From the NCBI GenBank assembly GCA_024710965.1, contig JANJTU010000314.1, forward strand, positions 25,222 to 65,221: DNA of 40,000 nucleotides, in the 5' to 3' direction. Below are positions 10,828-26,266 of the stretch, in pieces (positions within the stretch are counted from its first letter, which is position 1; each line of letters starts with the position of its first letter). Source of the stretch: Thauera sp. GTDB lineage: Bacteria > Pseudomonadota > Gammaproteobacteria > Burkholderiales > Rhodocyclaceae. The translations under genes were made by a program, and so were the position numbers. The notes below the pieces were generated by a model. That model had not been told where the DNA came from and ran no database searches. It was given only the letters and a program-made list of their open reading frames with translations.

Positions 10828-10844
10828 GCGCGGTCGGCGCGCTC
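10826..10844. terminator. Hairpin spanning both stop codons of convergent genes
   Basis: GAGCGCG (10826-10832), loop GTCGG, CGCGCTC (10838-10844). This is a perfect 7-bp stem. It overlaps the TGA of the hydrolase-like gene and the TGA of the FRG gene. No U-tract. Confidence 0.35.
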
Positions 10845-11658
10845 ACGCGCTGCCGCTGCCCTGGCCGCCGTCCGCGGCGCGCGCCCGGTACTGGCGCGCG
10901 AGCCAGCGGCTGAGGCCGTCGAGGCCGGGAAAGAGCACGCGCTCGGTGACGTTGCACTGGTCGAGCTTGTCGCGGACTTCCCACTTCAGGGCGGCCGGGA
11001 TGACGATCTTGCGGCACAGCGCGGGGTGGTGCTCGATCCAGTCGTCGATGCGCGCGGTGGGCGCGGACATCACCGAGAACAGCGCGAACTGGTTGGCGAT
11101 GCGGTCGTCGATCGAGGGCGGCTCGAAAAAGAGCAGGAAGGGCTCCGCCGACATCGCCTCGAAGCCGTCGAGCGTGGTCACGGTGCGCTCGAGGAGCTCG
11201 GTCGTGAAGGCGTTCGCGCCTTCGCTGTCGAGCGCGTCGCGCACCCCGGCGGGCAGCAGCCGGTGCGCGCGCTCGTAGTTCACCGCCCAGATCGCGCCGT
11301 CGCGCGCCATCGCCTCGGCGCTGGCGGTGGCGAAATGCATCGCCACCAGCGGCGAGTGCGTCCAGTCCAGCAGCCGCGTCGGCAGGCCGTGGTGCTGCGC
11401 CACCGACAGCCAGTGCCAGAGCGAGTCGCGCTCGACGACGTCGCGGTGGGCGTACTTGGCGAAGTTGCGGATCAGATGGCGCTCGAGCCGCGCGCTGTCG
11501 CCGCCGAGGCGGGCGAGGCTGGTGGCGAGGCCGTGGCCGGCATCGTCCAGGCCGCGGAAGGCGCAGGGCGAGCGGTAGCGCAGGATGCGCTCGTTCCAGG
11601 CGCCCTCGAACAGCAGCGCCTGCAGCTGGCTCCAGGATTCCGCCACACAGACTTCCAT
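10843..11658 (-). CDS. FRG-domain protein
   Basis: The ATG at 11658 lies inside the artefactual 961-aa ORF. YRSPCAFRGLDD...QHHGLPTRLLDWTHSPLVAMHFA...ANQFALFSV matches what I recall of the FRG domain (FRG motif, HYGLPTRLLDWT block). An in-frame TTG at 11754 would add a Gly/Ala-repeat N-terminus (see findings). Confidence 0.8.
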   Translation of the reverse strand: MEVCVAESWSQLQALLFEGAWNERILRYRSPCAFRGLDDAGHGLATSLARLGGDSARLERHLIRNFAKYAHRDVVERDSLWHWLSVAQHHGLPTRLLDWTHSPLVAMHFATASAEAMARDGAIWAVNYERAHRLLPAGVRDALDSEGANAFTTELLERTVTTLDGFEAMSAEPFLLFFEPPSIDDRIANQFALFSVMSAPTARIDDWIEHHPALCRKIVIPAALKWEVRDKLDQCNVTERVLFPGLDGLSRWLARQYRARAADGGQGSGSA

Positions 11659-11685
11659 GCATTCCCCCTGGCTCACCGGCCCCTC

Positions 11686-11730
11686 GCCTGCCGCACCCTG
11701 GCCTGCCGCACCCTGGCCTGCCGCGCCCCC
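11686..11730. repeat. 15-bp tandem repeat GCCTGCCGCACCCTG (2 perfect copies plus 1 degenerate)
   Basis: Copies at 11686-11700 and 11701-11715 are identical. 11716-11730 (GCCTGCCGCGCCCCC) matches 12/15. The repeat lies between the reductase stop (11751) and the FRG ATG (11658). Confidence 0.85.
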
Positions 11731-11750
11731 GTCCGCCGCGCCCCACCCGC

Positions 11751-12722
11751 TCAAAGGTCGAGCACCAGGCGCGCGCCGCGGCAGCCCGACACGCACACCA
11801 TCATGCTCTTGTTCGCCGCGCGCTCGGCCTTGCTCAGCACCGAGTCGCGGTGCTCGGCCTCGCCCTCGAGGATGCGCGTCTCGCACGAGCCGCACACCCC
11901 CTCCTGGCAGTTGAACGGCACGTCGATGTGGTTCGCCTGCAGCACGCCGAGCAGCGATTCGCCCGCGCCCACCTGCAGCCTGCGCTGGCTGCGCTGCAGC
12001 ACGAGCTCGTAGGCGCCGCTGGCCGCGGCGGCCGGCTGGTCGGTGCGCGCGGCGAAGCGCTCGACATGGACGTTGGGGTAGCCGAGCGCCTCGCACACGG
12101 CCTCGAAGCGGTCGATCATCGGCGTCGGCCCGCAGCAGTAGAAGTGCGCCTTGGCGTCGAACTGCTGCAGGTAGGCCTGGAGCTCGGGCGGCCCGCCCGC
12201 TTCTTCGTCGACATGCCAGTCGACGCTGCCGCCGAGGCGGCCGATATCGCGCGCGAACGCGGCCTGGCGGCGCGAGCGCACGCTGTAGAGCAGGCGCACC
12301 GGGCGGCCGAGCTCGAGCAGGCGCGCGTACATGCTGTAGATCGGCGTGATGCCGATGCCGCCGGCGAGCAGCACGGTGTCGCCGGCCGTCTCGTCGAGGA
12401 CGAAGTGGTTGCGCGGGCGCGACACGGGCAGCAGCTGGCCGACGCGCAGCTGCTCGTGGATGTAGCGCGAGCCGCCGCGGCTGGCACGGTCGAGCAGGAC
12501 GCCGACGACGTAGGCGCGCGGCGAGGAGCGCGGCACCACCAGCGAGTAGCTGCGCGCGATGCCGTTGGGAAGGAAGAGGTCGACGTGCGCGCCCGCCGCC
12601 ACCGGCGCCAGCTCGGCGCCGTCGGGCGCGGCCAGTTCGACGCTGAGCACGCCGTCGGCCTCGTAGCGCATCGCCTCGACGCGCATCGTCATGGTGTCGT
12701 CTGTAGTCATTTCGGTTTCCAT
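11751..12722 (-). CDS. PDR/VanB-type oxygenase reductase (flavin/NAD-binding domains plus C-terminal plant-type 2Fe-2S ferredoxin)
   Basis: RSYSL (flavin-binding RxYS), LLAGGIGITP (NAD-binding GGxGxxP) and the C-terminal CQEGVCGSCETRIL...MVCVS cysteine cluster. Start uncertain: GTG 12743, ATG 12722, 12710 or 12692. Confidence 0.85.
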   Translation of the reverse strand: METEMTTDDTMTMRVEAMRYEADGVLSVELAAPDGAELAPVAAGAHVDLFLPNGIARSYSLVVPRSSPRAYVVGVLLDRASRGGSRYIHEQLRVGQLLPVSRPRNHFVLDETAGDTVLLAGGIGITPIYSMYARLLELGRPVRLLYSVRSRRQAAFARDIGRLGGSVDWHVDEEAGGPPELQAYLQQFDAKAHFYCCGPTPMIDRFEAVCEALGYPNVHVERFAARTDQPAAAASGAYELVLQRSQRRLQVGAGESLLGVLQANHIDVPFNCQEGVCGSCETRILEGEAEHRDSVLSKAERAANKSMMVCVSGCRGARLVLDL

Positions 12723-12821
12723 CGCTGCGGCCCCGTCCGCCACGCGGACGGCGCCGTGAATCCGTGAGCCCCGGCCGCGGCCGGCGGCGCGAGGCGGACA
12801 GTGCCCCGCGCCGCGCGCCGC

Positions 12822-13865
12822 TCAGCGGGCTGCGTGGGCGGTGTCGAGCTGCGCGGCCTCGAGTTGCGCGGCCGCGATGCCGCGCAGGTAGCGCCGCTGG
12901 CGCACCAGACCCATGTCGTGCTGGTAGAGGAACTCGCGCTGGCAGGCGTCGGGCTCCATCAGCTCGAGCGTCCTGCGGTCCTGCTCGACCACCTCCCAGT
13001 GCCGCGCCTCGAGGCGGTTCTTGTACAGGAAGCGCCACACGTCGCGCTGCCAGCCGCCCACCTTGCGGCAGCGCCAGAAGACGACGCCGCAGGTCTCGCG
13101 CGTGATCGGCACGTACATGCCGATGATGGTGAAGTTGCCGCCGGGGCCGCCGGTCTTCGGGTAGGGGATCTCCAGGCGGTGGTACATCAGCTTGCCGTCG
13201 TCGTAGAGCTCGGTCCAGTCGAAGTTCACGTTGCGCTGGCCCTTCTTCTCGAAGAAGAAGCCGTGGTCGGTGTCGCGGATGACGAAGTCGGCCGAGATGT
13301 CGCCCTCGGCCATCGAGTGCGACTGCTTGTGCAGGTACACGCCGTGCATCGGGTCCATGACGTTGTCGGCGACGTAGCGGTAGTCGCTCTGCCACTCCAT
13401 GTAGGAGTGGAAGTGGCTCCACTCGGGCGAGGCGAGGTATTCGGGCAGCGCCAGCGCCGGCGGCGCGTCGACGGGCGTGGCCGCGTTGTAGAGGAAGATC
13501 ATGCCGGCGGCGTCCTGCACGTGGAAGGCGCGCGTCGTGCGCGAGCCTTCGAGCTTGCACCCCGGGCTGCCGGGCACGCGCGTGACGCGGCCGTCGCAGC
13601 GCACCTCGACGCCGTGGTAGGCGCAGGCGATGCGGTCGCCGAGCACGACGCCCACCGACAGCGGCGCGCCGCGGTGCGGGCAGTGGTCCTCGAGGCAGTG
13701 GATCTGGCCGCTCGCCGGATCGCGCCACAGCGCGAGCTTGAGGCCGAGGCGGCGCAGGCTGATCGCGCGGTCGGTGACGAAGCTCGAGGGGCAGATCGCG
13801 TACCAGCGGTCCTTCAGGCCGTCGGCGAGGTAGTCGTCGATGGGGTCGATGTCCTTGGTGTTCAT
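12822..13865 (-). CDS. Rieske 2Fe-2S aromatic-ring oxygenase, alpha subunit only (VanA/phthalate-family type)
   Basis: The ATG at 13865 with GGAGA upstream lies inside the artefactual 726-aa ORF. Rieske motif CLEDHCPHRGAPL...ACAYHG. Non-heme-iron region DNVMDPMHGVYLH. Confidence 0.9.
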   Translation of the reverse strand: MNTKDIDPIDDYLADGLKDRWYAICPSSFVTDRAISLRRLGLKLALWRDPASGQIHCLEDHCPHRGAPLSVGVVLGDRIACAYHGVEVRCDGRVTRVPGSPGCKLEGSRTTRAFHVQDAAGMIFLYNAATPVDAPPALALPEYLASPEWSHFHSYMEWQSDYRYVADNVMDPMHGVYLHKQSHSMAEGDISADFVIRDTDHGFFFEKKGQRNVNFDWTELYDDGKLMYHRLEIPYPKTGGPGGNFTIIGMYVPITRETCGVVFWRCRKVGGWQRDVWRFLYKNRLEARHWEVVEQDRRTLELMEPDACQREFLYQHDMGLVRQRRYLRGIAAAQLEAAQLDTAHAAR

Positions 13866-13915: not shown

Positions 13916-14146
13916 TCAGGCGCCCAGGCGCGCCATCTCGGCGCAGAACAGCTCGGGCGTCCACGGCGCGCCGTTCGGCGCGCTCGGGCCGGACTGGTTC
14001 AGGTAGGCGACCAGGGGCGCCAGCTCGTGGATGCCCTGCGCGTAGGCGCGCTCGATCGCGTCGCCGAGCAGGTCCTCGAACGGGGTTGGCGCCGCGACGC
14101 GGGCCTGGTGCGGCTCGAGGTAAAGGGGCCGGTTGGTGGTGCTCAT
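13916..14146 (-). CDS. Small hypothetical protein (76 aa) wedged between the dioxygenase and the Rieske oxygenase
   Basis: Strong AGGAGA Shine-Dalgarno upstream of the ATG at 14146. The composition is protein-like (MSTTNRPLYLEPHQARVAAPTPFEDLLGDAIERAYAQGIHELAPLVAYLN...). From memory it resembles small proteins sometimes annotated as recombinase-like HTH domain proteins next to Rieske oxygenases. This is unverified. Confidence 0.6.
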   Translation of the reverse strand: MSTTNRPLYLEPHQARVAAPTPFEDLLGDAIERAYAQGIHELAPLVAYLNQSGPSAPNGAPWTPELFCAEMARLGA

Positions 14147-14218: not shown

Positions 14219-15217
14219 TCAGCGCGCGGCGCTGCGCTCGCCGGGCTTGTCGCGCTCGCCGCTGCGGTCGCTGAGAAAGCCGCTGCGCGGGGCGTCGGCG
14301 CCGTGCGGCCGGCGGCTGACGCCGTCGATGCCGCCCTCCACCGCCCACTCGGCGAACACGGTTGGGCCGGGCTCGAACTCGCGCGGCACCCACTCGCCGG
14401 TGAGCTCGTCCTCGTCGGCGTAGTACTCGGCCAGCCCCCCGGCGGGGTTGTCGAAATACCAGAAGTAGGCCGAGGACACCGGGTGACGGCCCGGCCCGAG
14501 CTGGGTGCGCCAGCCGCAGCGGTCCATCGCCATGCCGCCGCCGATCACCTCGTGGATGTCGCGCACGGTGAAGGCGACGTGGTTGAGGCCGTTCTTGCCG
14601 CTCGGCAGCTGCAGCAGGAAGAGGTCGTGGTGGCCGCCGTGCGGCGCGCAGCGCAGGAAGCTGCCGCGGCCCGGGTACTGGTCGGAGAGCGCGAAGCCGA
14701 GCTTCTCGGTGTAGAAGCGCACCGCCTCCTCGCGCCGCGCGGCGAAGAAGACGACGTGACCGACCTCGATCGGCACCGCGCGCTCGTAGATCGGCGCCGG
14801 CCGGTTCACGCGCGGGCGCCGGTTCCAGGTGTTGAACTCGGCGCCCTCGACCGCGACCGCGCGCTTGCGGCTGACCTGCAGCCCGAGCGCGATGCCGTTG
14901 GGGTCGATGCAGCGCAGCCGGCCGTCGGCCACCGCATAGCCGGGCGCATCGCGCAGGCCTTCGGCGTAGCTCGCCAGGTCCGCTTCGCTGTCGACGCCCC
15001 ACACCACCTCGACCAGGGTCGGGCCGTCCTCGATGCCGGCCGGCAGGCCGGGGCGCGACGGGTGCGCGACGCGCACGACGCAGTCGTTCAGGGTGTGGAA
15101 CACGAGTTCGTCGGCGCGCTCGGCGACGAGGCGCAGGCCCCAGTCGGTGAAGAACTTCCTGCAGCGCGCGAGATCCGCGGCGCGATAGGTGATCTCGTCG
15201 ATGCCCAGTACCGCCAT
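14219..15217 (-). CDS. Two-domain VOC (glyoxalase/extradiol ring-cleavage dioxygenase) family protein
   Basis: ATG at 15217 with AGGAGA upstream. Two VOC-like halves: LGIDEITYRAADLARCRKFFTDWGL and IEVGHVVFFAARREEAVRFYTEKLGFALSD...HHDLFL...LNHVAFTV. Confidence 0.8.
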   Translation of the reverse strand: MAVLGIDEITYRAADLARCRKFFTDWGLRLVAERADELVFHTLNDCVVRVAHPSRPGLPAGIEDGPTLVEVVWGVDSEADLASYAEGLRDAPGYAVADGRLRCIDPNGIALGLQVSRKRAVAVEGAEFNTWNRRPRVNRPAPIYERAVPIEVGHVVFFAARREEAVRFYTEKLGFALSDQYPGRGSFLRCAPHGGHHDLFLLQLPSGKNGLNHVAFTVRDIHEVIGGGMAMDRCGWRTQLGPGRHPVSSAYFWYFDNPAGGLAEYYADEDELTGEWVPREFEPGPTVFAEWAVEGGIDGVSRRPHGADAPRSGFLSDRSGERDKPGERSAAR

Positions 15218-15261: not shown

Positions 15262-16758
15262 TCAGGCAGCCGCCGTGCGCGGCGTGGCCCAGGCCAGGGG
15301 CGCCTCGTTGAGGCCCCAGTAGACGCCCTTCTGCTCCATGTACTGCAGGATCCCCTGCCGCCCCTTCTCGCGCCCGAGGCCGCTGTCGCGCCAGCCGCCG
15401 AAGGGCGTCGCGGCGGAGAACTGCTTGTAGGTGTTGATCCACACCGTGCCCGCCTGCACCGCGCGCGCGACGCGCCAGGCGCGCTTGTAGTCGCGCGTCC
15501 AGATGCCGGCGGCGAGCGCGTAGACGCTGTCGTTGGCCTGCGCGATCAGGTCGGCCTCGTCGTCGAAGGGCAGCGCCACCAGCACCGGGCCGAAGATCTC
15601 CTCCTGGCAGACGCGCGCGCGGTTGTCGAGGCCGTCGAGGATGGTCGGGCGGTAGTAGTAGCCGCGCGCGAAGGCCGCGCCCTGCGGCCGTTCGCCGCCG
15701 CACAGCAGGCGCCCGCCTTCCTCGCGCCCGAGCGCGACATAGCGCTCGACCGCGTCGCGGTGCTGGGCGGTGATCAGCGGCCCCATCTGGGTGCGCTCGC
15801 TGGCCGGGTCGCCGACGGCGAGCGCCTCGGCACCGGCCACCAGCCGCGCCATGAACTCGTCGTAGCGGCGGCGGGCGACGAAGAGCCGCGAGCCGGCGAT
15901 GCAGGACTCGCCCGAGGAGCTGAAAATGCCGTACAGCACGCCCTTGAGCGCGTGCTCGAGCTCGGCGTCGTCGAACACCATCGTCGGCGACTTGCCGCCG
16001 AGCTCGAGCGACACCGGCATGCACTTGTCGGCGGCGATGTGGGCGATGTGGCGGCCGGTCCGGGTGCCGCCGGTGAAGGACACGCGGCGCACGAGCGGAT
16101 GGCGGGTGATCGCGTCGCCGATCACCGAGCCCTTGCCCGGCAGCACGCTCACCAGGCCGCGCGGCACGCCGGCTTCCTCGCAGATGCGGGCGAGCTCGAG
16201 CGCGAGCAGCGGCGTCACTTCGGCGGGCTTGACCACCACCGCGTTGCCGGCGGCGAGCGCCGGCGCCATCTTCTGCGCCTCGCTCGCGATCGGCGAGTTC
16301 CACGGCGTGATCGCGGCGACCACGCCCATCGGCTCGTACACGCTGATCGACAGGTAGTCGCCGCGCGCCGGCGTGATCGCCTCCTCGAGCGTCTCGCAGG
16401 CGGCGGCGAAGAACTGGAAGGTGGCCGCGGCGCTCGCCACCAGCGCGCGCGTCTCGAGGATGGGCTTGCCGTTGTCGAGGCGCTGCTTGTGCGCGAGCGC
16501 CTCGCCGCGGGCACGGATCAGCTCGGCGACGCGGTAGAGCACGAGCGCGCGCTCGTGCGGCTTCTGTTGCGCCCAGCCGCTGGTGTCGAAGGCGCGCTGC
16601 GCGCCGGCGATCGCCTCCTCGACGTCGGCGAGGCTCGCCGCATTGAGGCGGGCGACGACTTCGCCGCTGGCCGGGTAGAGCGAGGCGTAGGGGTCGCCGC
16701 CGCCGCGGCGCCATTCGCCGGCGATGCAGATGGGCAGGATCTGGTCGGGGTCGTACAT
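15262..16758 (-). CDS. NAD(P)-dependent aldehyde dehydrogenase
   Basis: ATG at 16758 with AGGAG upstream. ITPWNSP, VSLELGGKSP (catalytic Glu motif) and FSSSGESCIAGSR (catalytic Cys), plus EEIFGPV. Confidence 0.9.
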   Translation of the reverse strand: MYDPDQILPICIAGEWRRGGGDPYASLYPASGEVVARLNAASLADVEEAIAGAQRAFDTSGWAQQKPHERALVLYRVAELIRARGEALAHKQRLDNGKPILETRALVASAAATFQFFAAACETLEEAITPARGDYLSISVYEPMGVVAAITPWNSPIASEAQKMAPALAAGNAVVVKPAEVTPLLALELARICEEAGVPRGLVSVLPGKGSVIGDAITRHPLVRRVSFTGGTRTGRHIAHIAADKCMPVSLELGGKSPTMVFDDAELEHALKGVLYGIFSSSGESCIAGSRLFVARRRYDEFMARLVAGAEALAVGDPASERTQMGPLITAQHRDAVERYVALGREEGGRLLCGGERPQGAAFARGYYYRPTILDGLDNRARVCQEEIFGPVLVALPFDDEADLIAQANDSVYALAAGIWTRDYKRAWRVARAVQAGTVWINTYKQFSAATPFGGWRDSGLGREKGRQGILQYMEQKGVYWGLNEAPLAWATPRTAAA

Positions 16759-16766
16759 GGCGGCTC

Positions 16767-17591
16767 CTAGATCGTGATCGCGTGCGCGCTGTTCGTCAGC
16801 GCCCGCGCGACGCAGAACACCGTCAGCGCGGAGGTCTTGGGGTTGGCGCGCAGCGGCTTGCCGCTCATCGTCAGCTCGAGGCGGCCGAAGGCGCCCTGGG
16901 CGTCGATGTGGTGCTGGTTCTCCTCGACGCGCGGGTCGGCCCACAGCTCGACGCGGGTCGCGTCCAGCCCCAGGCCGGCGAGCGCGACGGTGGCCGCGAC
17001 GTTGGCGTTCTTCGGGAAGCGGCGCGCGGCCTCGCGCGCCGTGCCTTCGAAGATGCGCACCGGCTCGACCACCGCGTCGAGCGCGAGCTCGGCCTCGGCC
17101 GGCGTGCCCTGCCAGGCGCGCGGCGGCTTGCGGCCGACGTAGCACACCGTCTCCAGCCCGCCGAGGCGGGCGGCGGCGAGCGCGTCGATGGCGCCGATCG
17201 CACCGGGCAGCAGCTGCGCCTGCGTGCCGCCGCGCCGCGCCGCCTCCTCCAGGCGTTCGGCGAGCCCGTCCTCGGACAGCGCGCCGACCGAGATCACGAG
17301 GCAGGGAATGCCGCGCTCGAGCGCCGGGATCACGTGCTGCCCGATCGCGGAATGGCCGGCGCACTCGACGATCAGGTCGGGGCGGCCGGCGCCGAGCTCG
17401 ACCGCCGCGGCGAGCCGCGCGCCCGGCGCAGCGCGCTCCAGCGCCGCGCGCACCGCCGCATCCTCCGGATGCGGCACCACCACCGCGTCGACCGCGATCT
17501 CCGGATTGCCGCGCACCAGCTCCAGCACCCCGGCGCCGATTGCGCCGAAGCCGATCATGGTCACGCGCTTGACCTGCTGGTGCCCGTTCAT
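16767..17591 (-). CDS. Aspartate dehydrogenase (NadX-like) family protein
   Basis: VTMIGFGAIGAGV (Rossmann GxGxxG), ECAGHSAI, LPGAIGAIDAL and C-terminal NQHHIDAQGAFGRLELTMSGKPLRANPKTSALTV match the L-aspartate dehydrogenase family as I recall it. The ATG at 17591 overlaps the upstream stop (ATGA). Confidence 0.8.
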   Translation of the reverse strand: MNGHQQVKRVTMIGFGAIGAGVLELVRGNPEIAVDAVVVPHPEDAAVRAALERAAPGARLAAAVELGAGRPDLIVECAGHSAIGQHVIPALERGIPCLVISVGALSEDGLAERLEEAARRGGTQAQLLPGAIGAIDALAAARLGGLETVCYVGRKPPRAWQGTPAEAELALDAVVEPVRIFEGTAREAARRFPKNANVAATVALAGLGLDATRVELWADPRVEENQHHIDAQGAFGRLELTMSGKPLRANPKTSALTVFCVARALTNSAHAITI

Positions 17592-19273
17592 GCCGCGCTC
17601 TCTTCGAGGTCGCTCTTCTGGCTCACCGGCGGGCCGGCGAACACGGTCTTGAAGCTGCCAATCGACAGCATGTCGATCTCGAGCAGGTAGGGCCCCTTCC
17701 TCGCCAGCGCGGCGTCGAGCGCGGCCTCGAGGCCGTCGAGCTGGCTCACCCGCGCGTGGCGCAGGCCGAGCGCCGCGGCGAGCTGGGCGTAGTCGGGCGT
17801 GTGCAGGTCCACGTAGCAGCGGCGGCCGCCATAGTAGGTGTCCTGGATGTTCTTGATGACGCCATAGCCCTTGTCGTTCATCAGCACGATCAGCAGGTCG
17901 GCCTCCTCCTGCACCGCGGCGGCGAGCTCGCCGAGGTTGAGGATGAAGCCGCCGTCGCCGGCGAGGCACAGGGTCTTGCGCCCGGAGCCGCTCACCGCGG
18001 CCGCGACCGCGGCGCCGATGCCCATCGCCAGGCCCTGGCCGATGCCGCCGCCGAGCGCATGCACGCCGGCGGTCGGCTCGAACACGCGCAGCTCGCGGTT
18101 GCCCCAGGTGCTGTTGGAGACGGTGACGTCGCGCACCCAGTTGAACTTGCGCCCGATGCGCGCCTGCAGCGTCGCCACCAGCCGGGCATAGGGACCGAGG
18201 CCGTCGACCAGGCCGCGCACGGCCTCGTCGTGGGCGCGGCGCAGCGCCACGGCATGCGCCGGATCGACCTTCATGCGGCCTTCGAGGCGGTCGGCGAGGC
18301 CTTCGAGGGCGAGCGTGGCGTCGCCCGTGACGAAGTAGTCGCTGTTGTAGCAGCGCCCTTCCGCCGAGGGGTCGGCGTCGATGCGGAACAGCGGGCGCGG
18401 CAGCTGCAGCTCGTACTTCAGCGTCTCGTTGCTGCGCAGGCGCGAGCCGACCACCAGCATCGCGTCGCACTCGCGGTAGAAGGCCTGCACCGGCGCGTGC
18501 AGGTTGTAGGCGCCGAGCGAGCGCGGGTCGTCCTCGGGGACGATGCCGCGGCCCTGGGTGCTGGTGACGACGCCGAAGCCCAGATCGAGCAGGCGCTGCA
18601 CCGCGGCACCGGCCTGGCGCGCGCCGCCGCCGAGCCACAGCAGCGGGCGGCGCGCACCGGCGAGGCGCTCGGCGAGCTGGTCGAGCGCCTCGGGCGCGGG
18701 CGCCAGGGTCTTCAGCGGCAGCGGCGCGAGGTCCTCGGGCAGAGGGATCAGCGCACTCTGGATGTCGATCGGGATCTCGACGCTGACCGGGCCGGTCGGC
18801 GCGCTCAGCGCGGTCTGCACCGCGAGCTTGAGCGTGCTGAGCGCGGTCTCGGCGCTGCGCACGCGGAACGCGGCCTTGGACACCGCCTTCAGCATCGTCA
18901 GCTGGTCGGGCGCCTCGTGGATGTAGGCGAGGTTGCGGTCGAGGTAGGGGCTCTCGATCTGGCCGGTGATGTGCAGCAGCGGCGTGCCCGCGGTGAGCGC
19001 CTCGACCATCGCGCCCGAGGCGTTGCCGGCGGCGGTGCCGGTGCTGGTGAGGCACACGCCCAGGCCGGCGGTGGTGCGCGCAGCGGCGTCGGCCATGTTG
19101 GTGGCGCCGGCCTCGCCGCGCGCCGGGACGAAGCGGATGCGGCCGCGCGCATGGAAGGCGTCGAGGATCGGCATGTTGTGGATCGAGATCACGCCGAAGG
19201 CCGTGCGCACGCCGCAGCGCTCGAGGAAGGCGGCGATGGCGGCGCCGACGGTGACGGTGTTCTTATCTTGCAT
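17588..19273 (-). CDS. Thiamine-diphosphate-dependent enzyme (acetolactate-synthase-like decarboxylase/carboligase family)
   Basis: N-terminal PYR domain (FGVISIHNMPILDAF...RGEAGATNMADAAAR) and a C-terminal ThDP-binding motif GDGGFILNLGELAAAV...VLMNDKGYG (GDG-X24-27-N). Confidence 0.9.
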   Translation of the reverse strand: MQDKNTVTVGAAIAAFLERCGVRTAFGVISIHNMPILDAFHARGRIRFVPARGEAGATNMADAAARTTAGLGVCLTSTGTAAGNASGAMVEALTAGTPLLHITGQIESPYLDRNLAYIHEAPDQLTMLKAVSKAAFRVRSAETALSTLKLAVQTALSAPTGPVSVEIPIDIQSALIPLPEDLAPLPLKTLAPAPEALDQLAERLAGARRPLLWLGGGARQAGAAVQRLLDLGFGVVTSTQGRGIVPEDDPRSLGAYNLHAPVQAFYRECDAMLVVGSRLRSNETLKYELQLPRPLFRIDADPSAEGRCYNSDYFVTGDATLALEGLADRLEGRMKVDPAHAVALRRAHDEAVRGLVDGLGPYARLVATLQARIGRKFNWVRDVTVSNSTWGNRELRVFEPTAGVHALGGGIGQGLAMGIGAAVAAAVSGSGRKTLCLAGDGGFILNLGELAAAVQEEADLLIVLMNDKGYGVIKNIQDTYYGGRRCYVDLHTPDYAQLAAALGLRHARVSQLDGLEAALDAALARKGPYLLEIDMLSIGSFKTVFAGPPVSQKSDLEESAA

Positions 19274-20066
19274 GGCGGGACAAACCTCCGGAAATATCGA
19301 TGTGGCTGCCGGTCGTGTATGACGACAGCGGCGAAGCGAGGAAGAAGACGGCGCGGGCGGCCTCTTCGGGGCGCCCCAGGCGCCCGAGTGGAATCTGCTT
19401 GGTGCGCGCGAGCTCGGCGCTCCAGTCGTCCCAGCTCTGTTCGGTGTTGGCGCGCTGCTCGTAGCGGCGGCGCCACTGGCCGGACTCGACGAGGCCGATG
19501 AGGATGCCGTTCACGCGCACGCCCTTGGGCGCGAACTCGACGGCCATCGAGCGCACCAGGTTGGCGATGCCGGCGCGCGCGGCCGAGGTCGCCACCATGT
19601 GCGGCTCGGGCTGCAGCGCGAGGAGCGAATTGACGCAGACGATCGCAGCCTCGGGGCGGCGCTCGAGCTGCGGCAGGAAGGCGCGGGTCGGGTGCAGCAC
19701 CGAGAAGAACTTCAGCTGCAGCTCCTCGGTCCAGGCCGCGTCGCTGGTGTCGGCGAAGGTCGACACGCGGCCCTGGCCGGCGTTGTTCACCAGGATCGAG
19801 GCCGGGCCGAAGGCGGCCTCGGTGCGCGCGGCGAAGTCGCGCACCGAAGCCGCGTCGAGCACATCGCAGGGCGCGGCGAGCAGGCGCGCGGCGGGAAAGC
19901 GCGCGTGCAGCTGGGCCTCGGCATGGGCGAGGCGGGCCTGGTCGCGGCCGCAGAAGGCCACCGCGGCACCGGCGGCGAGGAACTCGCCGACGCAGGCGAG
20001 GCCGATGCCGGACGAGCCGCCGGTGACGACCGCGACCGAGTGTTCGAGGTTGCACATTGCCATCAT
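19263..20066 (-). CDS. SDR-family oxidoreductase
   Basis: VTGGSSGIGLA (TGxxxGxG), NNAG and the A-x3-AG region. GAGGAGG lies just upstream of the tandem ATGs. The 3' end overlaps the ThDP gene start by 11 nt. Confidence 0.9.
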   Translation of the reverse strand: MMAMCNLEHSVAVVTGGSSGIGLACVGEFLAAGAAVAFCGRDQARLAHAEAQLHARFPAARLLAAPCDVLDAASVRDFAARTEAAFGPASILVNNAGQGRVSTFADTSDAAWTEELQLKFFSVLHPTRAFLPQLERRPEAAIVCVNSLLALQPEPHMVATSAARAGIANLVRSMAVEFAPKGVRVNGILIGLVESGQWRRRYEQRANTEQSWDDWSAELARTKQIPLGRLGRPEEAARAVFFLASPLSSYTTGSHIDISGGLSRHAR

Positions 20067-20076: not shown

Positions 20077-20904
20077 TCACAGCGCGATGACTTTGGCCGA
20101 GCGCGCGCGGCGCTGCGAGTAGCCGAGGGCGGACGACAGCTCGATCGCGGCGGCGCGGATGTGCGTCACCAGATTCTCGCGCAGCCCTTGCTCGATCTGG
20201 CCGAAGGGCACGGTGGCGCCGAGCGCGGCGATCACCTGACCCTCGCGGTCGCGCACCGGCGCCGCGACGGTGGAGATGCTGGGCTCGAAGAAGCCTTCGC
20301 CGACGACGCAGTCCTGGCCCTTGTCGTGCTGCAGCAGGTTGAACAGATCGATCACCGTCGCCGGCGTCTGCGCGCTGTGGCGCTCGAGGCGGTCCTCGGG
20401 ATAGAGCTCGCGCAGCTGCTCGAGGCTCATGTCCGACAGCAGGATGCGGCCGAACACGGTCGCGTGCGCCGGCAGCCGCGTGCCGACGGTGACCGAGGAG
20501 GCGATCCACGACGCCGGCGTGACCTTCGCCACATAGACGATGGAGCGGCCGTCGCGCACGACGAGGTTGCTCGCATAGCCGATCTCGTCGCGCAGGCGGC
20601 CGAGGATGGGCATGCCCAGTTCGGTCAGCTCGAGCGAGGACAGGTACTCGAAGCCCAGGCGCAGCACCGCGATGCCGAGGCGGAAGTCGCGCCCGCCCTC
20701 GGCGCGCTCGACGAAGCCGAGCTCTTCCAGCGTCGCCAGCATGCGGAACACGGTCGAGCGCGGCAGGTCCAGCCGGCGCGCGAGCTCGGGCGCCGACAGC
20801 ACCGGGTCGTGGCGGCTGAACTCGCCGAGCAGGCGCAGGCCGCGCTCGAGCGCCGGCACGGTGTACTTGTTGCCGGCGGTGTCCAGGGAATCGTCCTTAC
20901 TCAC
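20077..20904 (-). CDS. IclR-family transcriptional regulator
   Basis: GTG at 20904 with AGGAGA upstream. ALERGLRLLGEFSRHDPVLSAPELARRLDLPRSTVFRMLATLEELGFV (winged HTH), followed by an IclR effector domain. Confidence 0.9.
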   Translation of the reverse strand: MSKDDSLDTAGNKYTVPALERGLRLLGEFSRHDPVLSAPELARRLDLPRSTVFRMLATLEELGFVERAEGGRDFRLGIAVLRLGFEYLSSLELTELGMPILGRLRDEIGYASNLVVRDGRSIVYVAKVTPASWIASSVTVGTRLPAHATVFGRILLSDMSLEQLRELYPEDRLERHSAQTPATVIDLFNLLQHDKGQDCVVGEGFFEPSISTVAAPVRDREGQVIAALGATVPFGQIEQGLRENLVTHIRAAAIELSSALGYSQRRARSAKVIAL

Positions 20905-21772
20905 AGCGCTCTCCTTGCGTTTCGATGAACTCCCGCAGCGTGGCCGCGAGGAGTTGGGGGATCTCGACCGGGCTGGCGTGACCGCCGCCCGGCAACAGCA
21001 GCAGTGGCACGCCGAAGGCGGCGGCGACCGCCGCGCAGGCCGCCGGCGGCGTGACCACGTCGTCGGCGCCGCAGAAGCAGGCCACCGGCAGCGCGGCGGG
21101 CGCATGGCGGCCGATGTCGTCGGCGCACAGCAGCTCGGTGGCCTGGCGGTAGCCGTCGGCGTCCAGGTTCGCCATGTTCCAGCGCACCCAGTCGCGCGCC
21201 GCCGCGTCCGCCGCCGGCGACAGCAGCCGGCCCGCGCGCTCGGCCGCCATGCCGGCCACGCCGAGCGCAGCGAGCACCTGCAGGCGGGCGGCGCGCACCG
21301 CTTCGCGCTCGGCATCGAAGGCCGGTGCGCCGTAGCCGCGCGCCGGCGACACCAGCAGCAGCTGCGCCGCGCGGCCCTGCGGGTAGCGGGCGACGTAGGC
21401 CGCCGCCATCAGTGCGCCGAGCGAATGGCCGACCAGCACGCAGCGCGCGATGCCGAGCGCGGCGAGGAAGGCTTCGAGCGCCTCGGCGTAGTCGGTCGCG
21501 CGCGGGCGGGCCGCCGCGAGCGGGCTCGAGCCGCCGTAGCCGGGGGCGTCCCAGGCGACGATGCGGTAGTGCGCGCCCGCTTCCTGCGCCACGTCCAGCC
21601 AGGACGCCGAGGTCGAGCCGATGCCGTGCAGCAGCACCAGCGTGGTGTCGCCGCGCCCGGCGCCGCGCCAGGTCCAGCGCCGCGCCCCGGCCCTCAGTTC
21701 GCGTAGCGGGAAATGCGCGTCGAGGGCGGCGAGGCGTTGTTCGTGCGAGGTCATCTTCGGTCTCATCTCCAT
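20897..21772 (-). CDS. Alpha/beta-fold hydrolase
   Basis: LVLLHGIGSTSASW, nucleophile elbow VGHSLGA, and C-terminal GGGHASPVE (catalytic His region). The stop overlaps the iclR start by 8 nt. Confidence 0.85.
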   Translation of the reverse strand: MEMRPKMTSHEQRLAALDAHFPLRELRAGARRWTWRGAGRGDTTLVLLHGIGSTSASWLDVAQEAGAHYRIVAWDAPGYGGSSPLAAARPRATDYAEALEAFLAALGIARCVLVGHSLGALMAAAYVARYPQGRAAQLLLVSPARGYGAPAFDAEREAVRAARLQVLAALGVAGMAAERAGRLLSPAADAAARDWVRWNMANLDADGYRQATELLCADDIGRHAPAALPVACFCGADDVVTPPAACAAVAAAFGVPLLLLPGGGHASPVEIPQLLAATLREFIETQGERCE

Positions 21773-21778: not shown

Positions 21779-22543
21779 TCAGTGCATGACGAAGCCGCCA
21801 TTGACGGCAAGGAGCTGGCCGGTGGTGAAGCGCGACAGCTCGGACAGGCAGTAGAGCACCGCGCCGCACACGTCCTCGGGCAGTTGCTCGCGCTGCAGCG
21901 CGCGCTGCTCGACGTAGAGGCGGTGGCGCGCCTCGGGCACGTAGGCGGTCGCCTCGACCAGGGTCAGGCCGGGCGCCACCGCATTGACGGTGACGTTGCC
22001 GTCGCCGAGCTCGCGCGCCAGGCTGCGCGTCATGGCGACGATCGCGCCCTTGCTCGCGACGTAGGCGAGCAGGCGCGGCGCGCCCCACAGCGCGGTGTCG
22101 GAGGCGAGGTTCACCACCGCGCCGCGGCCGCTCGCGCGCAGCGCCGGAGCGCAGGCCACCGTCATCAGCCAGGTGCCGCGCACATTGACGTTCATGACGC
22201 GGTCCCAGGTGGCGAGGTCGAGCTCGTCGGCGGCCACGCCGCCGGAGTCGGTCACGGCGCCGTTGTTCACCAGGCCGTCGAGGCCGCCGAGGCATTCCAC
22301 CGCGGCGCGGGCGCAGGCCTCGATCGACGCCGGATCGGCGAGATCGAGCGCCAGCGCGTGCACCGCCAGCCCTTGCGCGGCGAGGCGCGCGGCCGCGGCC
22401 GTGGCGAGCTCGTGGCGCAGGTCGGCGATCACCACCGCGCCGCCTTCGCGCGCGATACGCTCGGCGAAGGCGAGCCCCAGGCCGCGTGCGCCGCCGGTGA
22501 CGAGCACGCGCTTTCCTGCCAGCAATTGAGTCATGGTCTTCAT
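21779..22543 (-). CDS. SDR-family oxidoreductase
   Basis: The ATG at 22543 lies inside the artefactual 506-aa ORF. VTGGARGLGLA, NNGA and YVASKGA (YxxxK). Confidence 0.9.
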   Translation of the reverse strand: MKTMTQLLAGKRVLVTGGARGLGLAFAERIAREGGAVVIADLRHELATAAAARLAAQGLAVHALALDLADPASIEACARAAVECLGGLDGLVNNGAVTDSGGVAADELDLATWDRVMNVNVRGTWLMTVACAPALRASGRGAVVNLASDTALWGAPRLLAYVASKGAIVAMTRSLARELGDGNVTVNAVAPGLTLVEATAYVPEARHRLYVEQRALQREQLPEDVCGAVLYCLSELSRFTTGQLLAVNGGFVMH

Positions 22544-22545: not shown

Positions 22546-23319
22546 TCACACCGTGGTCCGGGCTGCCTTGGGCAGGTAGTGCAGCACCTTCTTCTCGATC
22601 AGGATCACCGCCGCGTAGGCGGCAATGCCGATCACCGTGAGGCCGGTGATGGCGACGAAGACGCCGGCGGTGTTGCCCTGCCCTTCGGAGGCGACGAGCA
22701 GGAAGCCGAGGCCGAGGTTGCCGCCGACGAGCTCGCCGACGGTGACGCCGATCACCGCCAGCGTCGAGGCGATGCGCAGGCCGGAGAACAGGTTCGGCAG
22801 CGCCGAGGGGAACTCGAGCAGGGTGAAGATCTGCCAGCGCGTGGCGTTGAGCGTGCGCACCAGGTTCACCATGTCCGGATCGACGGTGCGGATCGCGGCG
22901 AGCACGTTGATCATCACCGGGAAGAACACGATCAGGATCGCGACCAGGATCTTCGGGTAGATCGTGTAGCCGAGCCACATCACGAACAGCGGCGCGAAGG
23001 CGACCTTGGGCGCGATCTGCAGGGCGAGGATGTAGGGCGACAGCACCGCCTCGGCGGTCGGCGACAGGCCGAGCGCGACGCCGACCGCGATGCCCAGCAG
23101 CGAGCCGAGCACGAAGCCGAGGAAGACCTCCACCGCGGTGATGCCGGTGTGGTGGAGGAGCTGGCTTTCGGTCCACATCCGCGCGCCTTCCGCGACGGTG
23201 CTGGTGAAGGTCGGGAAGATGTACTCGGGCAGGCCGATCCAGCCCGGCGCCCACTGCCACAGGATCAGGGTCAGGGCGAGCAGCGCGGCGCTGCCCCACA
23301 GCGTGGAAGAGTTGTTCAT
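22546..23319 (-). CDS. ABC transporter permease (NitT/TauT aliphatic-sulfonate/nitrate/taurine-type)
   Basis: About six hydrophobic segments and an EAA-like loop (TVDPDMVNLVRTLNATRWQIFTLLEFPSALPNLFSGLRIA). Confidence 0.9.
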   Translation of the reverse strand: MNNSSTLWGSAALLALTLILWQWAPGWIGLPEYIFPTFTSTVAEGARMWTESQLLHHTGITAVEVFLGFVLGSLLGIAVGVALGLSPTAEAVLSPYILALQIAPKVAFAPLFVMWLGYTIYPKILVAILIVFFPVMINVLAAIRTVDPDMVNLVRTLNATRWQIFTLLEFPSALPNLFSGLRIASTLAVIGVTVGELVGGNLGLGFLLVASEGQGNTAGVFVAITGLTVIGIAAYAAVILIEKKVLHYLPKAARTTV

Positions 23320-23338: not shown

Positions 23339-24331
23339 TCACTGTGCGGCTTGCACGAACTGGTTGGTGTAAAGCTCGTCGAGCGGCGTCGCGCGCGTGA
23401 CGATGCCCTCGGCGAGGTAGAAGTCCTGCACCGCCTTCAGGCGTTCGGCGTCGATCAGGCCGAGCGTCGGCTGCCCCGGATAGACATGCTTGCCATAGAG
23501 CTCGAAGGTCGCGACGAGCGCGGCTTCCTTGCCCTGGTAGGCGGGCACGGCGGCGGCGAAGGCCTTCGCGGCGGCGGCCGGGTCGTCCATGACGTCCTTC
23601 ATGCCGTGCAGCGTCGCCTGGACGAGCTTGCGCAGCAGCTCGGGCTGCTTCGCGATCGCCTCGTCCGAGGCGAGGATCGCCTGCGCCATGCTCTTGAACT
23701 GCTGCTCGGCCGGCAGCAGGTGGATGTCGCCGCCCGCCTCCCGCGCGCTGACGACCCAGTCGGGCACGCCCGCCATCGCCGCGACCTGGCCGCCGGCGAG
23801 CATCTGCCACACGCCGGCGGGGCCGGAGGCCTGCACCGCGACCTTCTGCTTGTCGAGGCCGGCGAGCTTGAGCGAGCCGAGCAGCGCGTAGTAGGTGGTG
23901 TCGGCGTAGGACATCACCGTCATCGTCTTGCCGGCGAGGTCGGCGACGTTGTTGACGCCGGAGGCCTTGGTCGCCGCGATCATCGTCAGCGAGCCGCCGC
24001 CGAGCACCGCGACCGCGCGCACCGGCACGCCATTGGCGCGGACGATGATCGGCGTGTCGCCGATCGCACCACCGACGATGGCGTTGCCCGAACCGATCTG
24101 CTTGGCGACATCGACGCCACCGCGCGCGGCGACGAAGGTCACGTTGAGGCCGGCGGCGTCGTAGTAGCCGTTCTGCTTGGCGACGATCCAGGGCGCGAAC
24201 GCGGGCAGGGTCGGCGGCGCCGGCAGCAGGTAGGTGACGTCTTCCTTGGCGAGCGCCGCGTCGGGCAGCAGCGCCATCAGGCTCGCCGCGGCGAGGGCGG
24301 CGCGGGCGAACTTGCGCAGGGGGATGCTCAT
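23339..24331 (-). CDS. Periplasmic ABC substrate-binding protein (NMT1/THI5-like, NitT/TauT family)
   Basis: Signal peptide MSIPLRKFARAALAAASLMALLPDAALA. The body resembles NMT1-like binding proteins. AGGAGA lies upstream of the ATG at 24331. Confidence 0.85.
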   Translation of the reverse strand: MSIPLRKFARAALAAASLMALLPDAALAKEDVTYLLPAPPTLPAFAPWIVAKQNGYYDAAGLNVTFVAARGGVDVAKQIGSGNAIVGGAIGDTPIIVRANGVPVRAVAVLGGGSLTMIAATKASGVNNVADLAGKTMTVMSYADTTYYALLGSLKLAGLDKQKVAVQASGPAGVWQMLAGGQVAAMAGVPDWVVSAREAGGDIHLLPAEQQFKSMAQAILASDEAIAKQPELLRKLVQATLHGMKDVMDDPAAAAKAFAAAVPAYQGKEAALVATFELYGKHVYPGQPTLGLIDAERLKAVQDFYLAEGIVTRATPLDELYTNQFVQAAQ

Positions 24332-24371
24332 GCTTGTCTCCTGTGGGGTGTCTTTATGTCTTGTCCGGCGT

Positions 24372-24426
24372 GTTCAGTGGCCGTTCAGTGGCCGTTCAGT
24401 GGCCACTCAGTGGCCACTCAGTGGCC
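24372..24426. repeat. 11-bp tandem repeat, 5 units (3x GTTCAGTGGCC, 2x ACTCAGTGGCC)
   Basis: Read directly at 24372-24382, 24383-24393, 24394-24404, 24405-24415 and 24416-24426. The last unit contains the ATPase stop codon (24418-24420) and its final Gly-His codons. Confidence 0.9.
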
Positions 24427-25296
24427 ATCGAGGCCGTCCTGGCCGACCCGCAGCAGCTCCATCAGGCGGCTCACCAGGGGGCCGACTTCGGGCAGCTTGC
24501 GGCGCTCGAGCGGGTTGTTGCGATGCGGCAGCGGCACCGTGATCTCCTCGATGATGGTGCCGGGGCGGTGGCTCATGACCAGCAGGCGGTCGGAGAGCGC
24601 GATCGCCTCGACGAGGTCGTGGGTGATGAAGAGCGCGGTCTTCTTCTGCTCGTGGAGCATCTGCGCCAGATCCTGCTGCAGCACCATCTTGGTCTGCGCG
24701 TCGAGCGCCGAGAACGGCTCGTCGAGCAGCAGCACCTGCGGGTCGGTGGCGAGCGTGCGCGCGAGCGCGGCGCGCTGGCGCATGCCACCGGAGAGCTGAT
24801 AGGGGTAGTGGTTCTCGAAGCCGGCGAGGTGGCACTTCGCGATCAGCTCGAGGGCGATCTGGCGGCGGCGCTGGCGGGCGACGCCGTCGATCTCGAGGCC
24901 GAGCTCGACGTTCTCGCGGATCGTGCGCCAGGGCATCAGCAGATCCTTCTGCAGCATGAAGGAGGTCTGCTTCACCGGCCGGGTGACGCGCTCCTTGCCG
25001 ACATAGACTTCGCCCTCGCTTGGCAGGTAGAGCCCGGCGCCCATGTTCAGCAGCGTGCTCTTGCCGCAGCCGCTGGGGCCGACGATGGAGACGACCTCGC
25101 CGCGGCGGATCTGGATGTTCAGGTGGCGCACCGCGTAGGGCGGGTTCGGCTCGCGCTTCGAGGGGAAGCGCTTGCTCACGTTGCGGAACTCGATCTGGAT
25201 TTCCTCCAGCGCTTTCTCGGCGCACGCGGGCGGCGTCGTGCCGATGGCGGCGACGCGCTTGATGGTGCTGGTACTGCGGGTTTCGGTCTCGATCAC
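24418..25296 (-). CDS. ABC transporter ATP-binding protein
   Basis: Walker A GPSGCGKST, signature LSGGMRQR, Walker B LLLDEPFSALD and H-loop FITHD. I prefer the GTG at 25296 (AGGAAA upstream) over the longer 339-aa ORF. Confidence 0.9.
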   Translation of the reverse strand: MIETETRSTSTIKRVAAIGTTPPACAEKALEEIQIEFRNVSKRFPSKREPNPPYAVRHLNIQIRRGEVVSIVGPSGCGKSTLLNMGAGLYLPSEGEVYVGKERVTRPVKQTSFMLQKDLLMPWRTIRENVELGLEIDGVARQRRRQIALELIAKCHLAGFENHYPYQLSGGMRQRAALARTLATDPQVLLLDEPFSALDAQTKMVLQQDLAQMLHEQKKTALFITHDLVEAIALSDRLLVMSHRPGTIIEEITVPLPHRNNPLERRKLPEVGPLVSRLMELLRVGQDGLDGH

Positions 25297-25402
25297 GGCT
25301 TTTCCTTGTACACGGCGGCGAGGTGGAGACGGGACGGGGCGCTGCCGCCCCACGGCTCCGACCGGCCACCGGGACGCATATGCGGCCCTGGCGAAGCAGG
25401 GG

Positions 25403-26266
25403 TCAGAAGTGGAACTCCAGGTTGAGCGTGGCGGCATCGGTGTCGACGCCGGGAATGCCGTGGTTGCCGAACTTGTTGCGCCACAGTTCGTAGCCGACCC
25501 CCATCAGGAAGGTATTCTTCCTGCCGAACGCCAGCTGGCCGACGTCGAGCATCAGGGCCGACCGGAACAGGGTCTCGCTGGCGGTCTCCTTGTTGAAATA
25601 ATCCTTGCCCTTCTTGCCGTTGTAGGCCAGAAAGCCCTGGTATTTCAGCGGCAGGCTGGCGAGCTGGAACGGAATCCCCCACGCCGCCTCGAGGCGCGCA
25701 TAGGGGTCGAAGCGGATGTCGGTGTTGAAGCCCGGCACCGTGCCGCAGGCCGGCAGGCCACAGTGGTTCCATTCCTGCGTGTACAGCAGGCTGACGTCGA
25801 GAAAGCCGGGCACGTCGAACTTGAAGGTGGGGCCGACGACGAGCATGCGCTTGCGCGGCGCGAAGGCGGAGTTCTTGGTCTGCAGGTCGAAGCCGGCGCT
25901 GATCGCGACGTCCTTCACCGGGCCGAAGGCGAGCGGCGCCGCGCGCAGCTTGCCGAGGTGAAGCTGGTGGCGATAGGCGAGGTAGAACTCGGTGGCGCCG
26001 TTGCTGCTGCCGTTGGCCGGGTCGGCGCTGTCGGAGTTCAGCACGTCGAGGTTGAAGAAGTTCTGCCCATAGGTGTAGCCGCCGACGTAGCTGAACTGGA
26101 CGATGTGCTTGCGCGTGTCTTCGCCGTTGCCGGGGTCGTGAAAATCCGTGCCGACGCGGTAGCCGATCAGGGCATCGGACCAGGTGGCGGCAGCAGCGGG
26201 CATCGACGCCATGGCGCCAAGGCCCAGCAGCACGGCGCAGGTAAGGTTCTTCGGATTGATTGCCAT
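25403..26266 (-). CDS. Outer-membrane beta-barrel channel (Tsx/OmpK-like guess)
   Basis: Signal peptide MAINPKNLTCAVLLGLGAMASMPAAA, alternating amphipathic strands rich in Tyr/Gly/Asn, and a C-terminal ...LNLEFHF ending in Phe. AGGAGA lies upstream of the ATG at 26266. The subfamily assignment is a guess. Confidence 0.7.
   Translation of the reverse strand: MAINPKNLTCAVLLGLGAMASMPAAAATWSDALIGYRVGTDFHDPGNGEDTRKHIVQFSYVGGYTYGQNFFNLDVLNSDSADPANGSSNGATEFYLAYRHQLHLGKLRAAPLAFGPVKDVAISAGFDLQTKNSAFAPRKRMLVVGPTFKFDVPGFLDVSLLYTQEWNHCGLPACGTVPGFNTDIRFDPYARLEAAWGIPFQLASLPLKYQGFLAYNGKKGKDYFNKETASETLFRSALMLDVGQLAFGRKNTFLMGVGYELWRNKFGNHGIPGVDTDAATLNLEFHF

Follow-up and report, generated by a model that had tools for sequence, protein, structure and literature searches.

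What compound is taken up and broken down by the long minus-strand run of genes on contig JANJTU010000314.1 of Thauera sp., in which an importer is followed by ring-attacking oxygenases, dehydrogenases and a regulator of the IclR family (Table 1)? The window, i.e., the whole stretch of DNA analysed, comprises 40,000 nt. Together with a divergent cupin gene, the run forms an intact, widespread and apparently uncharacterised catabolic regulon. The substrate is very probably an N-heterobicyclic compound, and the enzyme set makes import and mineralisation of kynurenic acid (4-hydroxyquinoline-2-carboxylate) under IclR control the somewhat favoured function. The initial annotation considered the substrate not deducible from the sequence; a specific candidate can nevertheless be proposed from the enzyme set, short of proof. 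The literature search found no paper assigning a function or substrate to these genes, but subscription journals lay largely outside its scope, so a published assignment is possible. The corresponding Pseudomonas aeruginosa PAO1 genes are mentioned in connection with phage sensitivity, with a glpR mutant and with an intergenic mutation.

The unbroken run of the initial annotation (26266..10843) proved to be real: all 16 open reading frames are present as consecutive genes picked out by codon-position GC content, with third-position GC of 0.91-0.98. The listed gene contents agree with the Pfam and NCBIfam domain assignments, the exception being the first gene, which matched neither collection. 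The three overlaps were given exactly, in position and length: 8 nt at 20897-20904, 11 nt at 19263-19273 and 4 nt (ATGA) at 17588-17591. The description of the gaps as mostly 2-50 nt fits seven of the 15 junctions and was slightly generous, five gaps measuring 72-111 nt. It was the limits of the unit that required correction, since the cupin gene belongs to it and the gene for an FRG-domain protein is a passenger. The operator had been overlooked. Among 80 fetched related loci, on which all counts of loci given here are based, the cupin has a homologue in 49 (median identity 63%), mostly between the genes for the first short-chain dehydrogenase/reductase (SDR1) and the hydrolase, or before the dioxygenase gene. 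The cupin gene is a core member of the unit, even though in the window it sits across the promoter from the other genes, unlike the usual order. The FRG gene has one close homologue in these loci (88%), in the nearest locus of all, that of an Aromatoleum metagenome-assembled genome (L002; 88% identity over 12 kb), and two distant ones (32-33%). It is a co-directional passenger outside the conserved unit.

The enzyme set is found, often reshuffled, in hundreds of proteobacterial species and in Streptomyces. At least 553 relatives of the Rieske oxygenase occur in species-representative genomes, and 2,295 protein clusters match it at E 1e-60 or better; the gene is present in relatives of P. aeruginosa, in Acinetobacter baumannii, Klebsiella and Burkholderia, and in soil and freshwater bacteria. 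Its spread is patchy, with 12 of 301 genomes of the order carrying it; a search of 24 genomes of the same genus yielded no cupin. The usual order in the related loci is SDR1, cupin, hydrolase, IclR, SDR2, thiamine diphosphate (ThDP) enzyme, aspartate dehydrogenase homologue (AspDH), aldehyde dehydrogenase, VOC protein, 76-aa protein, Rieske oxygenase and reductase. Streptomyces chartreusis, Pseudosulfitobacter, Novosphingobium, Nitratireductor and A. baumannii have other orders with the enzymes still together, the Streptomyces locus giving no IclR match. The order in A. baumannii (Rieske, SDR1 and VOC, then cupin, hydrolase, SDR2, AspDH, aldehyde dehydrogenase and ThDP enzyme) is close to the pathway order proposed below. 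The core set is kept together across beta-, gamma- and alphaproteobacteria and Streptomyces, and the persistence of the same enzymes in differing orders argues for one pathway.

The tandem operator, behind which the channel gene is the first, is a pair of palindromes unique in the 4.19-Mb genome. The related loci contain 39 such pairs, all spaced 19 bp although 15-30 bp was allowed, and nearly all lie immediately ahead of the gene that opens a cluster transcription unit; this count is partly fitted because the pattern was refined on the same loci. Searches of ten whole cluster-bearing genomes are the fairer test: they yielded 18 sites against two for a reversed control, two genomes having none. 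Fourteen of the 18 precede cluster genes, a Bug-type binding protein or an operon of Bug-type protein and molybdenum hydroxylase, and four are off-target. Some of the operator-marked pieces are megabases distant or carried by other contigs. The same operator stands ahead of a molybdenum hydroxylase operon in Hydrogenophaga and in genome G219, in the latter on a separate contig. The presence of one operator ahead of scattered pieces speaks for a single regulon with the cupin as a member, and the IclR protein is probably what binds it. The single site on the cupin side is the only exact match of the genome to a stricter form of the pattern; a different, initial pattern, GTTCCA-N4-TGGAAC, proved too narrow and yielded little. 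Scans for sigma-70 promoters and terminators gave chance-level results only. As a side observation, Hydrogenophaga sp. ANAO-22 has two cupin copies (L113:5429-5956 and one in L112), one of them standing alone beside a catalase gene and still behind an operator pair. A two-mismatch pair at G327:C1:5485829-5485863 (L098) precedes a lipoprotein-like reading frame divergent from an apparent threonyl-tRNA synthetase gene; this may be a regulon member or a chance match.

The kynurenate pathway of pseudomonads, which is attributed to work of the Hayaishi laboratory in 1961-63 (EC 1.14.99.2, 1.3.1.18 and 1.13.11.10), reportedly proceeds through a dihydrodiol, a catechol, 8,8a cleavage, reduction with NADPH, decarboxylation, aldehyde oxidation and ring opening, which gives 2-oxoglutarate and a C4-N fragment. 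For each of the first six steps the cluster has an enzyme of the fitting class, including an NAD dehydrogenase and an NADPH reductase. After uptake of kynurenate by the channel and the ABC (ATP-binding cassette) importer, the Rieske oxygenase, with the 76-aa protein and the reductase, would form the 7,8-cis-dihydrodiol. Its residues C62, H64, C81, H84, D171, H174, H179 and D296 are invariant, giving the CxH/CxxH motif, the bridging Asp and the 2-His-1-carboxylate site in a VanA-like fold. The reductase occurs in 73 of the 80 loci, and A. baumannii has a ferredoxin and a flavoprotein instead. SDR1 would oxidise the dihydrodiol to the 7,8-catechol with NAD: Y161-x3-K165 is present in 28 of 28 sequences and the NAD-marking Asp41 in 26, and its gene directly follows the Rieske gene in A. 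baumannii, Pseudosulfitobacter and Nitratireductor, as dihydrodiol dehydrogenase genes often do. The VOC protein could then cut the 8,8a bond, so that 4,6-dihydroxypicolinate carries a 2-oxo-alkenoate side chain. Its metal triad (H154, H213, E264) and second-shell H197, H245 and Y254 are each conserved in 79 of 79 sequences, and the protein is distantly similar to catechol and homoprotocatechuate 2,3-dioxygenases. The intact and invariant ligands of both oxygenases bear out the suggestion of the initial annotation that an unusual, probably N-containing aromatic is taken up and undergoes ring hydroxylation and extradiol cleavage.

The Rieske domain structure also invites a different explanation, in which an N-free aromatic (methoxylated, sulfonated or of the chromone/coumarin type) is demethylated or hydroxylated by the oxygenase and meta-cleaved, the AspDH being incidental. 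The C-terminal VanA_C domain, the dicamba and guaiacol O-demethylases as nearest structures, the likeness of the cupin to quercetinase and a weak SsuA match of the binding protein speak for it. However, identity to the demethylases is only about 21%, the AspDH is kept in every distant, reshuffled copy while RidA is added in 24 of the 80 loci, and the hydratase or aldolase of a standard meta pathway is absent; an N-free substrate is therefore very improbable. The analysis likewise dismissed the vitamin B6 and nicotinate pathways and the standard meta pathway of catechol, as no family cut-off was reached and key enzymes are missing.

In the kynurenate route the next steps would fall to SDR2, reducing the C=C bond of the side chain with NADPH, to the ThDP enzyme, decarboxylating the 2-oxo acid, and to the aldehyde dehydrogenase, yielding a carboxyethyl compound. 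The two SDRs split as such a pathway needs, one being of the NAD type with Tyr and Lys and the other of the NADP type without the Tyr. SDR2 is the orthologue of P. aeruginosa Q9HYA2 (match to PDB 3LF1 at E 2e-124), with the trans-2-enoyl-CoA reductase 1YXM as third match. The classical Tyr-x3-Lys is lacking; in the motif T160-S-A-A-R164, T160 and R164, as well as the NADP-marking R41, are found in 37 of 37 sequences. As the motif aligns with that of peroxisomal trans-2-enoyl-CoA reductase, SDR2 is likely an NADPH-dependent C=C reductase. In many Comamonadaceae loci a third, likewise Tyr-less SDR stands in its place. The ThDP enzyme has an invariant E54 and a GDG motif at 439, its nearest named family being 5-guanidino-2-oxopentanoate decarboxylase, under the cut-off; for the aldehyde dehydrogenase none of the NCBIfam matches listed is a named family above the cut-off.

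The last steps are a proposal of the present study: the cupin would open the pyridine ring oxidatively, and the hydrolase would then free 2-oxoglutarate and iminoaspartate. The closest solved match of the cupin, by sequence and fold, is the Ni-quercetinase QueD, a heterocycle-cleaving dioxygenase, which is counted in favour of kynurenate; H98, H100, E104 and E105 are invariant. The hydrolase adjoins the cupin in most relatives and retains a Ser-Asp-His triad (S117 and D238 in 51 of 51 sequences, H265 in 50), its best solved relative (E 2.5e-15) not being close. The carbons left over from the pyridine ring would make up iminoaspartate, the substrate of AspDH and a plausible one of RidA; AspDH would reduce it to aspartate and RidA, where present, would hydrolyse it to oxaloacetate. 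A fused benzo ring and an N-C4-dicarboxylate fragment would fit kynurenate. Pseudomonads have been reported to form glutamate, alanine and organic acids from kynurenic acid (review; PMC11354673).

The AspDH homologue is the only copy found in the genome, and nadA and nadC, the context of NAD biosynthesis, are absent at it; its neighbours here and in relatives are the ThDP enzyme and the aldehyde dehydrogenase. Its presence in the core, with RidA in a part of the loci, would indicate imine chemistry. Accessory genes of the related loci further encode a NicC-like monooxygenase (27 loci), closest to 6-hydroxynicotinate 3-monooxygenase (E 3e-83), a 105-aa protein (24) and a molybdenum hydroxylase (11). 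Molybdenum hydroxylases typically hydroxylate N-heterocycles. AspDH and the accessory genes thus point to a ring nitrogen in the substrate; the N-containing substrate suspected in the initial annotation is upheld by the RidA, NicC-like and molybdenum enzymes that accompany the cluster in relatives, where the molybdenum hydroxylase might feed in quinaldate and the flavin monooxygenase xanthurenate. No close copies of the four accessory proteins were found in this genome. The 105-aa protein (e.g., L063:9432-9749, +) had no Pfam or NCBIfam match and occurs in nearly the same 24 loci as RidA.

The adjacency and translational coupling of the ThDP, AspDH and aldehyde dehydrogenase genes, here and in most loci, could also mean that these three first shorten the side chain of an aromatic or heteroaromatic amino acid (by way of the 2-oxo acid and the aldehyde to the acid), with the ring attacked afterwards. 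The nearest named family of the ThDP enzyme, an arginine-pathway 2-oxo-acid decarboxylase, is in line with this, as is the 2.2-2.4-fold increase of these A. baumannii genes on mucin (PMC5757984). Against it, AspDH lies apart from the ThDP gene in Streptomyces, A. baumannii and G219 while the Tyr-less NADP-type SDR stays, SDR2 and the cupin are left without roles, and the transporters of the cluster copies are of the NMT1, Bug or MFS (major facilitator superfamily) type, none being an amino-acid transporter. This sequence of events is improbable.

Several observations weigh against kynurenate. Neither the genes adjoining the cluster nor those behind the operator showed a member of the kynurenine pathway. 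Tryptophan dioxygenase co-occurs in 10 of 12 cluster-bearing genomes against 50 of 289 others, but the control, homogentisate dioxygenase (HmgA), is similarly enriched (8/12 against 56/289), so this co-occurrence was discarded as non-specific; the counts include related genomes and are not independent. The solved relatives of the Rieske oxygenase are mostly monooxygenases or demethylases, the cupin lacks the fourth His of the quercetinase 3-His-1-Glu site (R144 in 46 of 46 sequences) and matches quercetinase weakly (26-27%), the nearest solved relative of the accessory molybdenum enzyme is 4-hydroxybenzoyl-CoA reductase, and the promoter of its operon is common to a divergent MarR gene. Human ASPDH reduces 2-aminomuconate rather than iminoaspartate, so the family is not bound to aspartate (10.64898/2026.06.05.730449).

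The last point also serves the notion that the substrate is another fused N-heterocycle (a quinoline or quinolone acid, quinoxaline, benzimidazole or plant alkaloid fragment), the benzo ring being dihydroxylated and cleaved, the side chain shortened and AspDH, able to use 2-aminomuconate, acting on another imino or enamino acid. All of the N-heterocycle evidence is unspecific for kynurenate, and the riboflavin route applies a ThDP enzyme, xanthine oxidase, Rieske and catechol dioxygenases to a quinoxaline (PMC12746152). On the other side, the P450 and several amidases of the riboflavin cluster are absent here. The trio of reduction, decarboxylation and oxidation, together with a NadX-type enzyme above the cut-off, fully matches the kynurenate route as it is reportedly known, and we know of no second described pathway with that enzyme set. 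Another heterocycle is hence unlikely, though to be reckoned with.

The 76-aa protein concerns the oxygenase whatever its substrate. Strong PF20552 matches occur in exactly the 12 genomes of the order that carry this Rieske clade, with the gene at most 260 nt upstream of the Rieske gene in all 12; in two alphaproteobacteria the distance is 2.7 kb, again upstream and within one operon. A model of two Rieske chains and one 76-aa chain, scored against controls, reached 0.62, the best control reaching 0.01, with at least 58% of the contacts agreeing between runs and a partner pLDDT (predicted local confidence) of at least 80. The mark for this score is reached by 58 of 80 solved complexes and two of 110 mismatched pairs, counts that are only roughly valid here. 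No solved homologue of the 76-aa protein was found, which makes recall of a known complex by the model unlikely. Interface residues of the small protein are more conserved than the remainder (75% vs. 56%). On the Rieske side distant copies retain an RFLY patch, but conservation of the entire interface does not exceed the average, and the contact region is poorly ordered when the oxygenase is modelled alone. There is no beta subunit gene, and the 76-aa protein is modelled as the bound partner. Taken together, the model and the gene neighbourhood make it a probable physical partner of the oxygenase, so that the label "single-component-type" of the initial annotation is probably not apt. The PF20552 name, "serine recombinase DNA-binding domain", also appears misplaced on this stand-alone, net acidic protein (8 D/E, 4 K/R), which lies beside the Rieske gene in 12 of 12 genomes and whose likeness to PF07508 is at the level of fold only (Atlas). 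A search of longer proteins, weak as evidence, found no Rieske-PF20552 fusion; one 280-aa sequence appears to result from read-through across VOC, the 105-aa gene and PF20552. The combined proposition, i.e., kynurenate-breakdown genes with an undescribed cupin/hydrolase/AspDH ring-opening route and a Rieske dioxygenase dependent on a small helical PF20552 subunit, for which architecture no solved example exists, is put forward tentatively.

Table 1. Genes and operator sites of the cluster, in window coordinates (aa, amino acids; PDR, phthalate dioxygenase reductase).
Feature	Position	Strand	Assignment or remark
FRG-domain gene	10843..11658	-	PF08867
PDR/VanB-type reductase	11751..12710	-	NAD-binding and Fer2 domains; start uncertain (12692-12722)
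Rieske oxygenase, alpha3 structural class	12822..13865	-	Candidate kynurenate 7,8-dioxygenase
76-aa PF20552 protein	13916..14146	-	Probable small partner subunit of Rieske oxygenase
Two-domain VOC protein	14219..15217	-	Full type I extradiol dioxygenase site
Aldehyde dehydrogenase	15262..16758	-	PF00171; catalytic motifs present
Aspartate dehydrogenase homologue	16767..17591	-	PRK13303.1-2, 407 bits vs. cut-off 226; candidate iminoaspartate reductase
ThDP enzyme	17588..19273	-	PRK07064 above cut-off; candidate 2-oxo-acid decarboxylase
SDR2, atypical NADP-type SDR without catalytic Tyr	19263..20066	-	PRK07062 above cut-off
IclR-family regulator	20077..20904	-	PF09339 and PF01614; nearest NCBIfam PcaR/PcaU/PobR, under cut-off
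Alpha/beta hydrolase	20897..21772	-	Candidate amide hydrolase after ring opening
SDR1, classical NAD-type dehydrogenase	21779..22543	-	Candidate cis-dihydrodiol dehydrogenase
ABC permease	22546..23319	-	PF00528
NMT1/THI5-like substrate-binding protein	23339..24331	-	PF09084
ABC importer ATPase	24418..25296	-	PF00005
Tsx/OmpK-like outer-membrane channel	25403..26266	-	Atlas neighbours OmpK/Tsx at 0.97-0.99
Tandem operator	26334..26368		Two 16-bp palindromes starting at 26334 and 26353; consensus GTTTCA-N4-TGAAAC
Single palindromic site, cupin side of divergent promoter	26612..26627		0 mismatches to pattern
Cupin	26774..27319	+	Cupin_2 (Pfam); candidate dioxygenase opening pyridine (dihydroxypicolinate) ring

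A dedicated importer suggests that the substrate is taken from outside. The solved relatives of the binding protein are all distant (E 4e-8 or weaker), and the start of the ATPase is uncertain, position 25296 being favoured by a ribosome-binding site and 25437 possible. The channel has no counterpart in the fetched loci, most of which end short of that position; a second Tsx/OmpK-like channel, 64% identical to it, is encoded elsewhere in the same genome (G000:C125:5887-6687). Two short repeats were noticed within the run, one of 15 bp, present about 2.8 times in the spacer from the reductase stop to the FRG start (11686-11727), and one of 11 bp in five units that runs over the stop codon of the ATPase gene into the spacer ahead of the binding-protein gene (24372-24426). 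Beyond the FRG gene, positions 8221-10827 hold a chromate efflux transporter gene (-) and a gene for a glycoside-hydrolase-2-like secreted protein (+), whose stop converges with the FRG stop 15 nt apart. Downstream of the cupin gene, 27481-30052 (+) contains hexapeptide-repeat (gamma carbonic anhydrase-like), short catalase-family and 2OG-Fe(II) oxygenase genes, none of which recurs in the related loci. At 696-5640 (-) lie genes for a CoxL-type molybdenum hydroxylase large subunit, an AraC regulator and MocA; the large subunit has 1000 aa, about 200 more than the family profile, and the medium and small subunits run past the window edge. This molybdenum enzyme (696-3698) was rejected as a member of the cluster, having no cluster-type operator and no close homologue in the related loci. 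In Pseudosulfitobacter and Nitratireductor (L083:11765-12709, L085:10592-11539) a 315-aa cupin, about 30% identical to the 180-aa cupin and with the fourth His present, replaces the latter beside the cluster, and the operon ends with flavodoxin-domain and pentapeptide-repeat genes.

If the kynurenate assignment is correct, three enzyme activities described about 60 years ago gain candidate genes, and the occurrence of aspartate dehydrogenase away from NAD synthesis genes in many proteobacteria is explained. Kynurenic acid, a metabolite of tryptophan, acts on immune and nerve functions, and the genes would then make it possible to ask whether microbes remove this signal. The operator offers a tool for finding the inducer, and PF20552 would be re-annotated as a Rieske partner, whatever the substrate.

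Among known systems, the classical kynurenate ("quinoline") pathway reportedly has the same order and types of reactions and a C5 product leading to glutamate. That work was done without genes, which makes a comparison of sequences impossible, and the cupin/hydrolase/AspDH ending is our proposal. Orthologous gene sets occur in P. aeruginosa PAO1 (PA3504-PA3514, the PA numbers of single genes being in part tentative) and in the A1S_0954-0958 region of A. baumannii. The orthology of SDR2 with Q9HYA2 ties the cluster to the PAO1 operon, which has been described as one unit with an SDR, a regulator and an ABC transporter (10.1101/2025.04.03.646983). Compared with both copies, the cupin is divergent here and a Tsx-like channel and the FRG gene are added. 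The lumichrome (riboflavin) cluster of Nocardioides simplex likewise directs a ThDP enzyme, a molybdenum hydroxylase, and Rieske and catechol dioxygenases at an N-heterobicycle, a likeness by description; it needs a P450, several amidases and a two-subunit ThDP enzyme (PMC12746152). The alpha3 Rieske oxygenases (dicamba monooxygenase, SxtT/GxtA, carbazole 1,9a-dioxygenase and KshA) share the fold (template-modelling scores of 0.54-0.67) and all eight metal and bridging ligands with the present enzyme, but at 17-22% identity, and here a helical PF20552 protein of 70-100 aa is modelled on the catalytic domain. The naphthalene upper pathway, consisting of NahA, NahB, NahC, NahD and NahE, also attacks a fused ring and proceeds through a dihydrodiol dehydrogenase and extradiol cleavage to an arylidene-pyruvate; in place of its hydratase-aldolase and beta subunit, the cluster described here has an atypical SDR, a ThDP enzyme and an aldehyde dehydrogenase.

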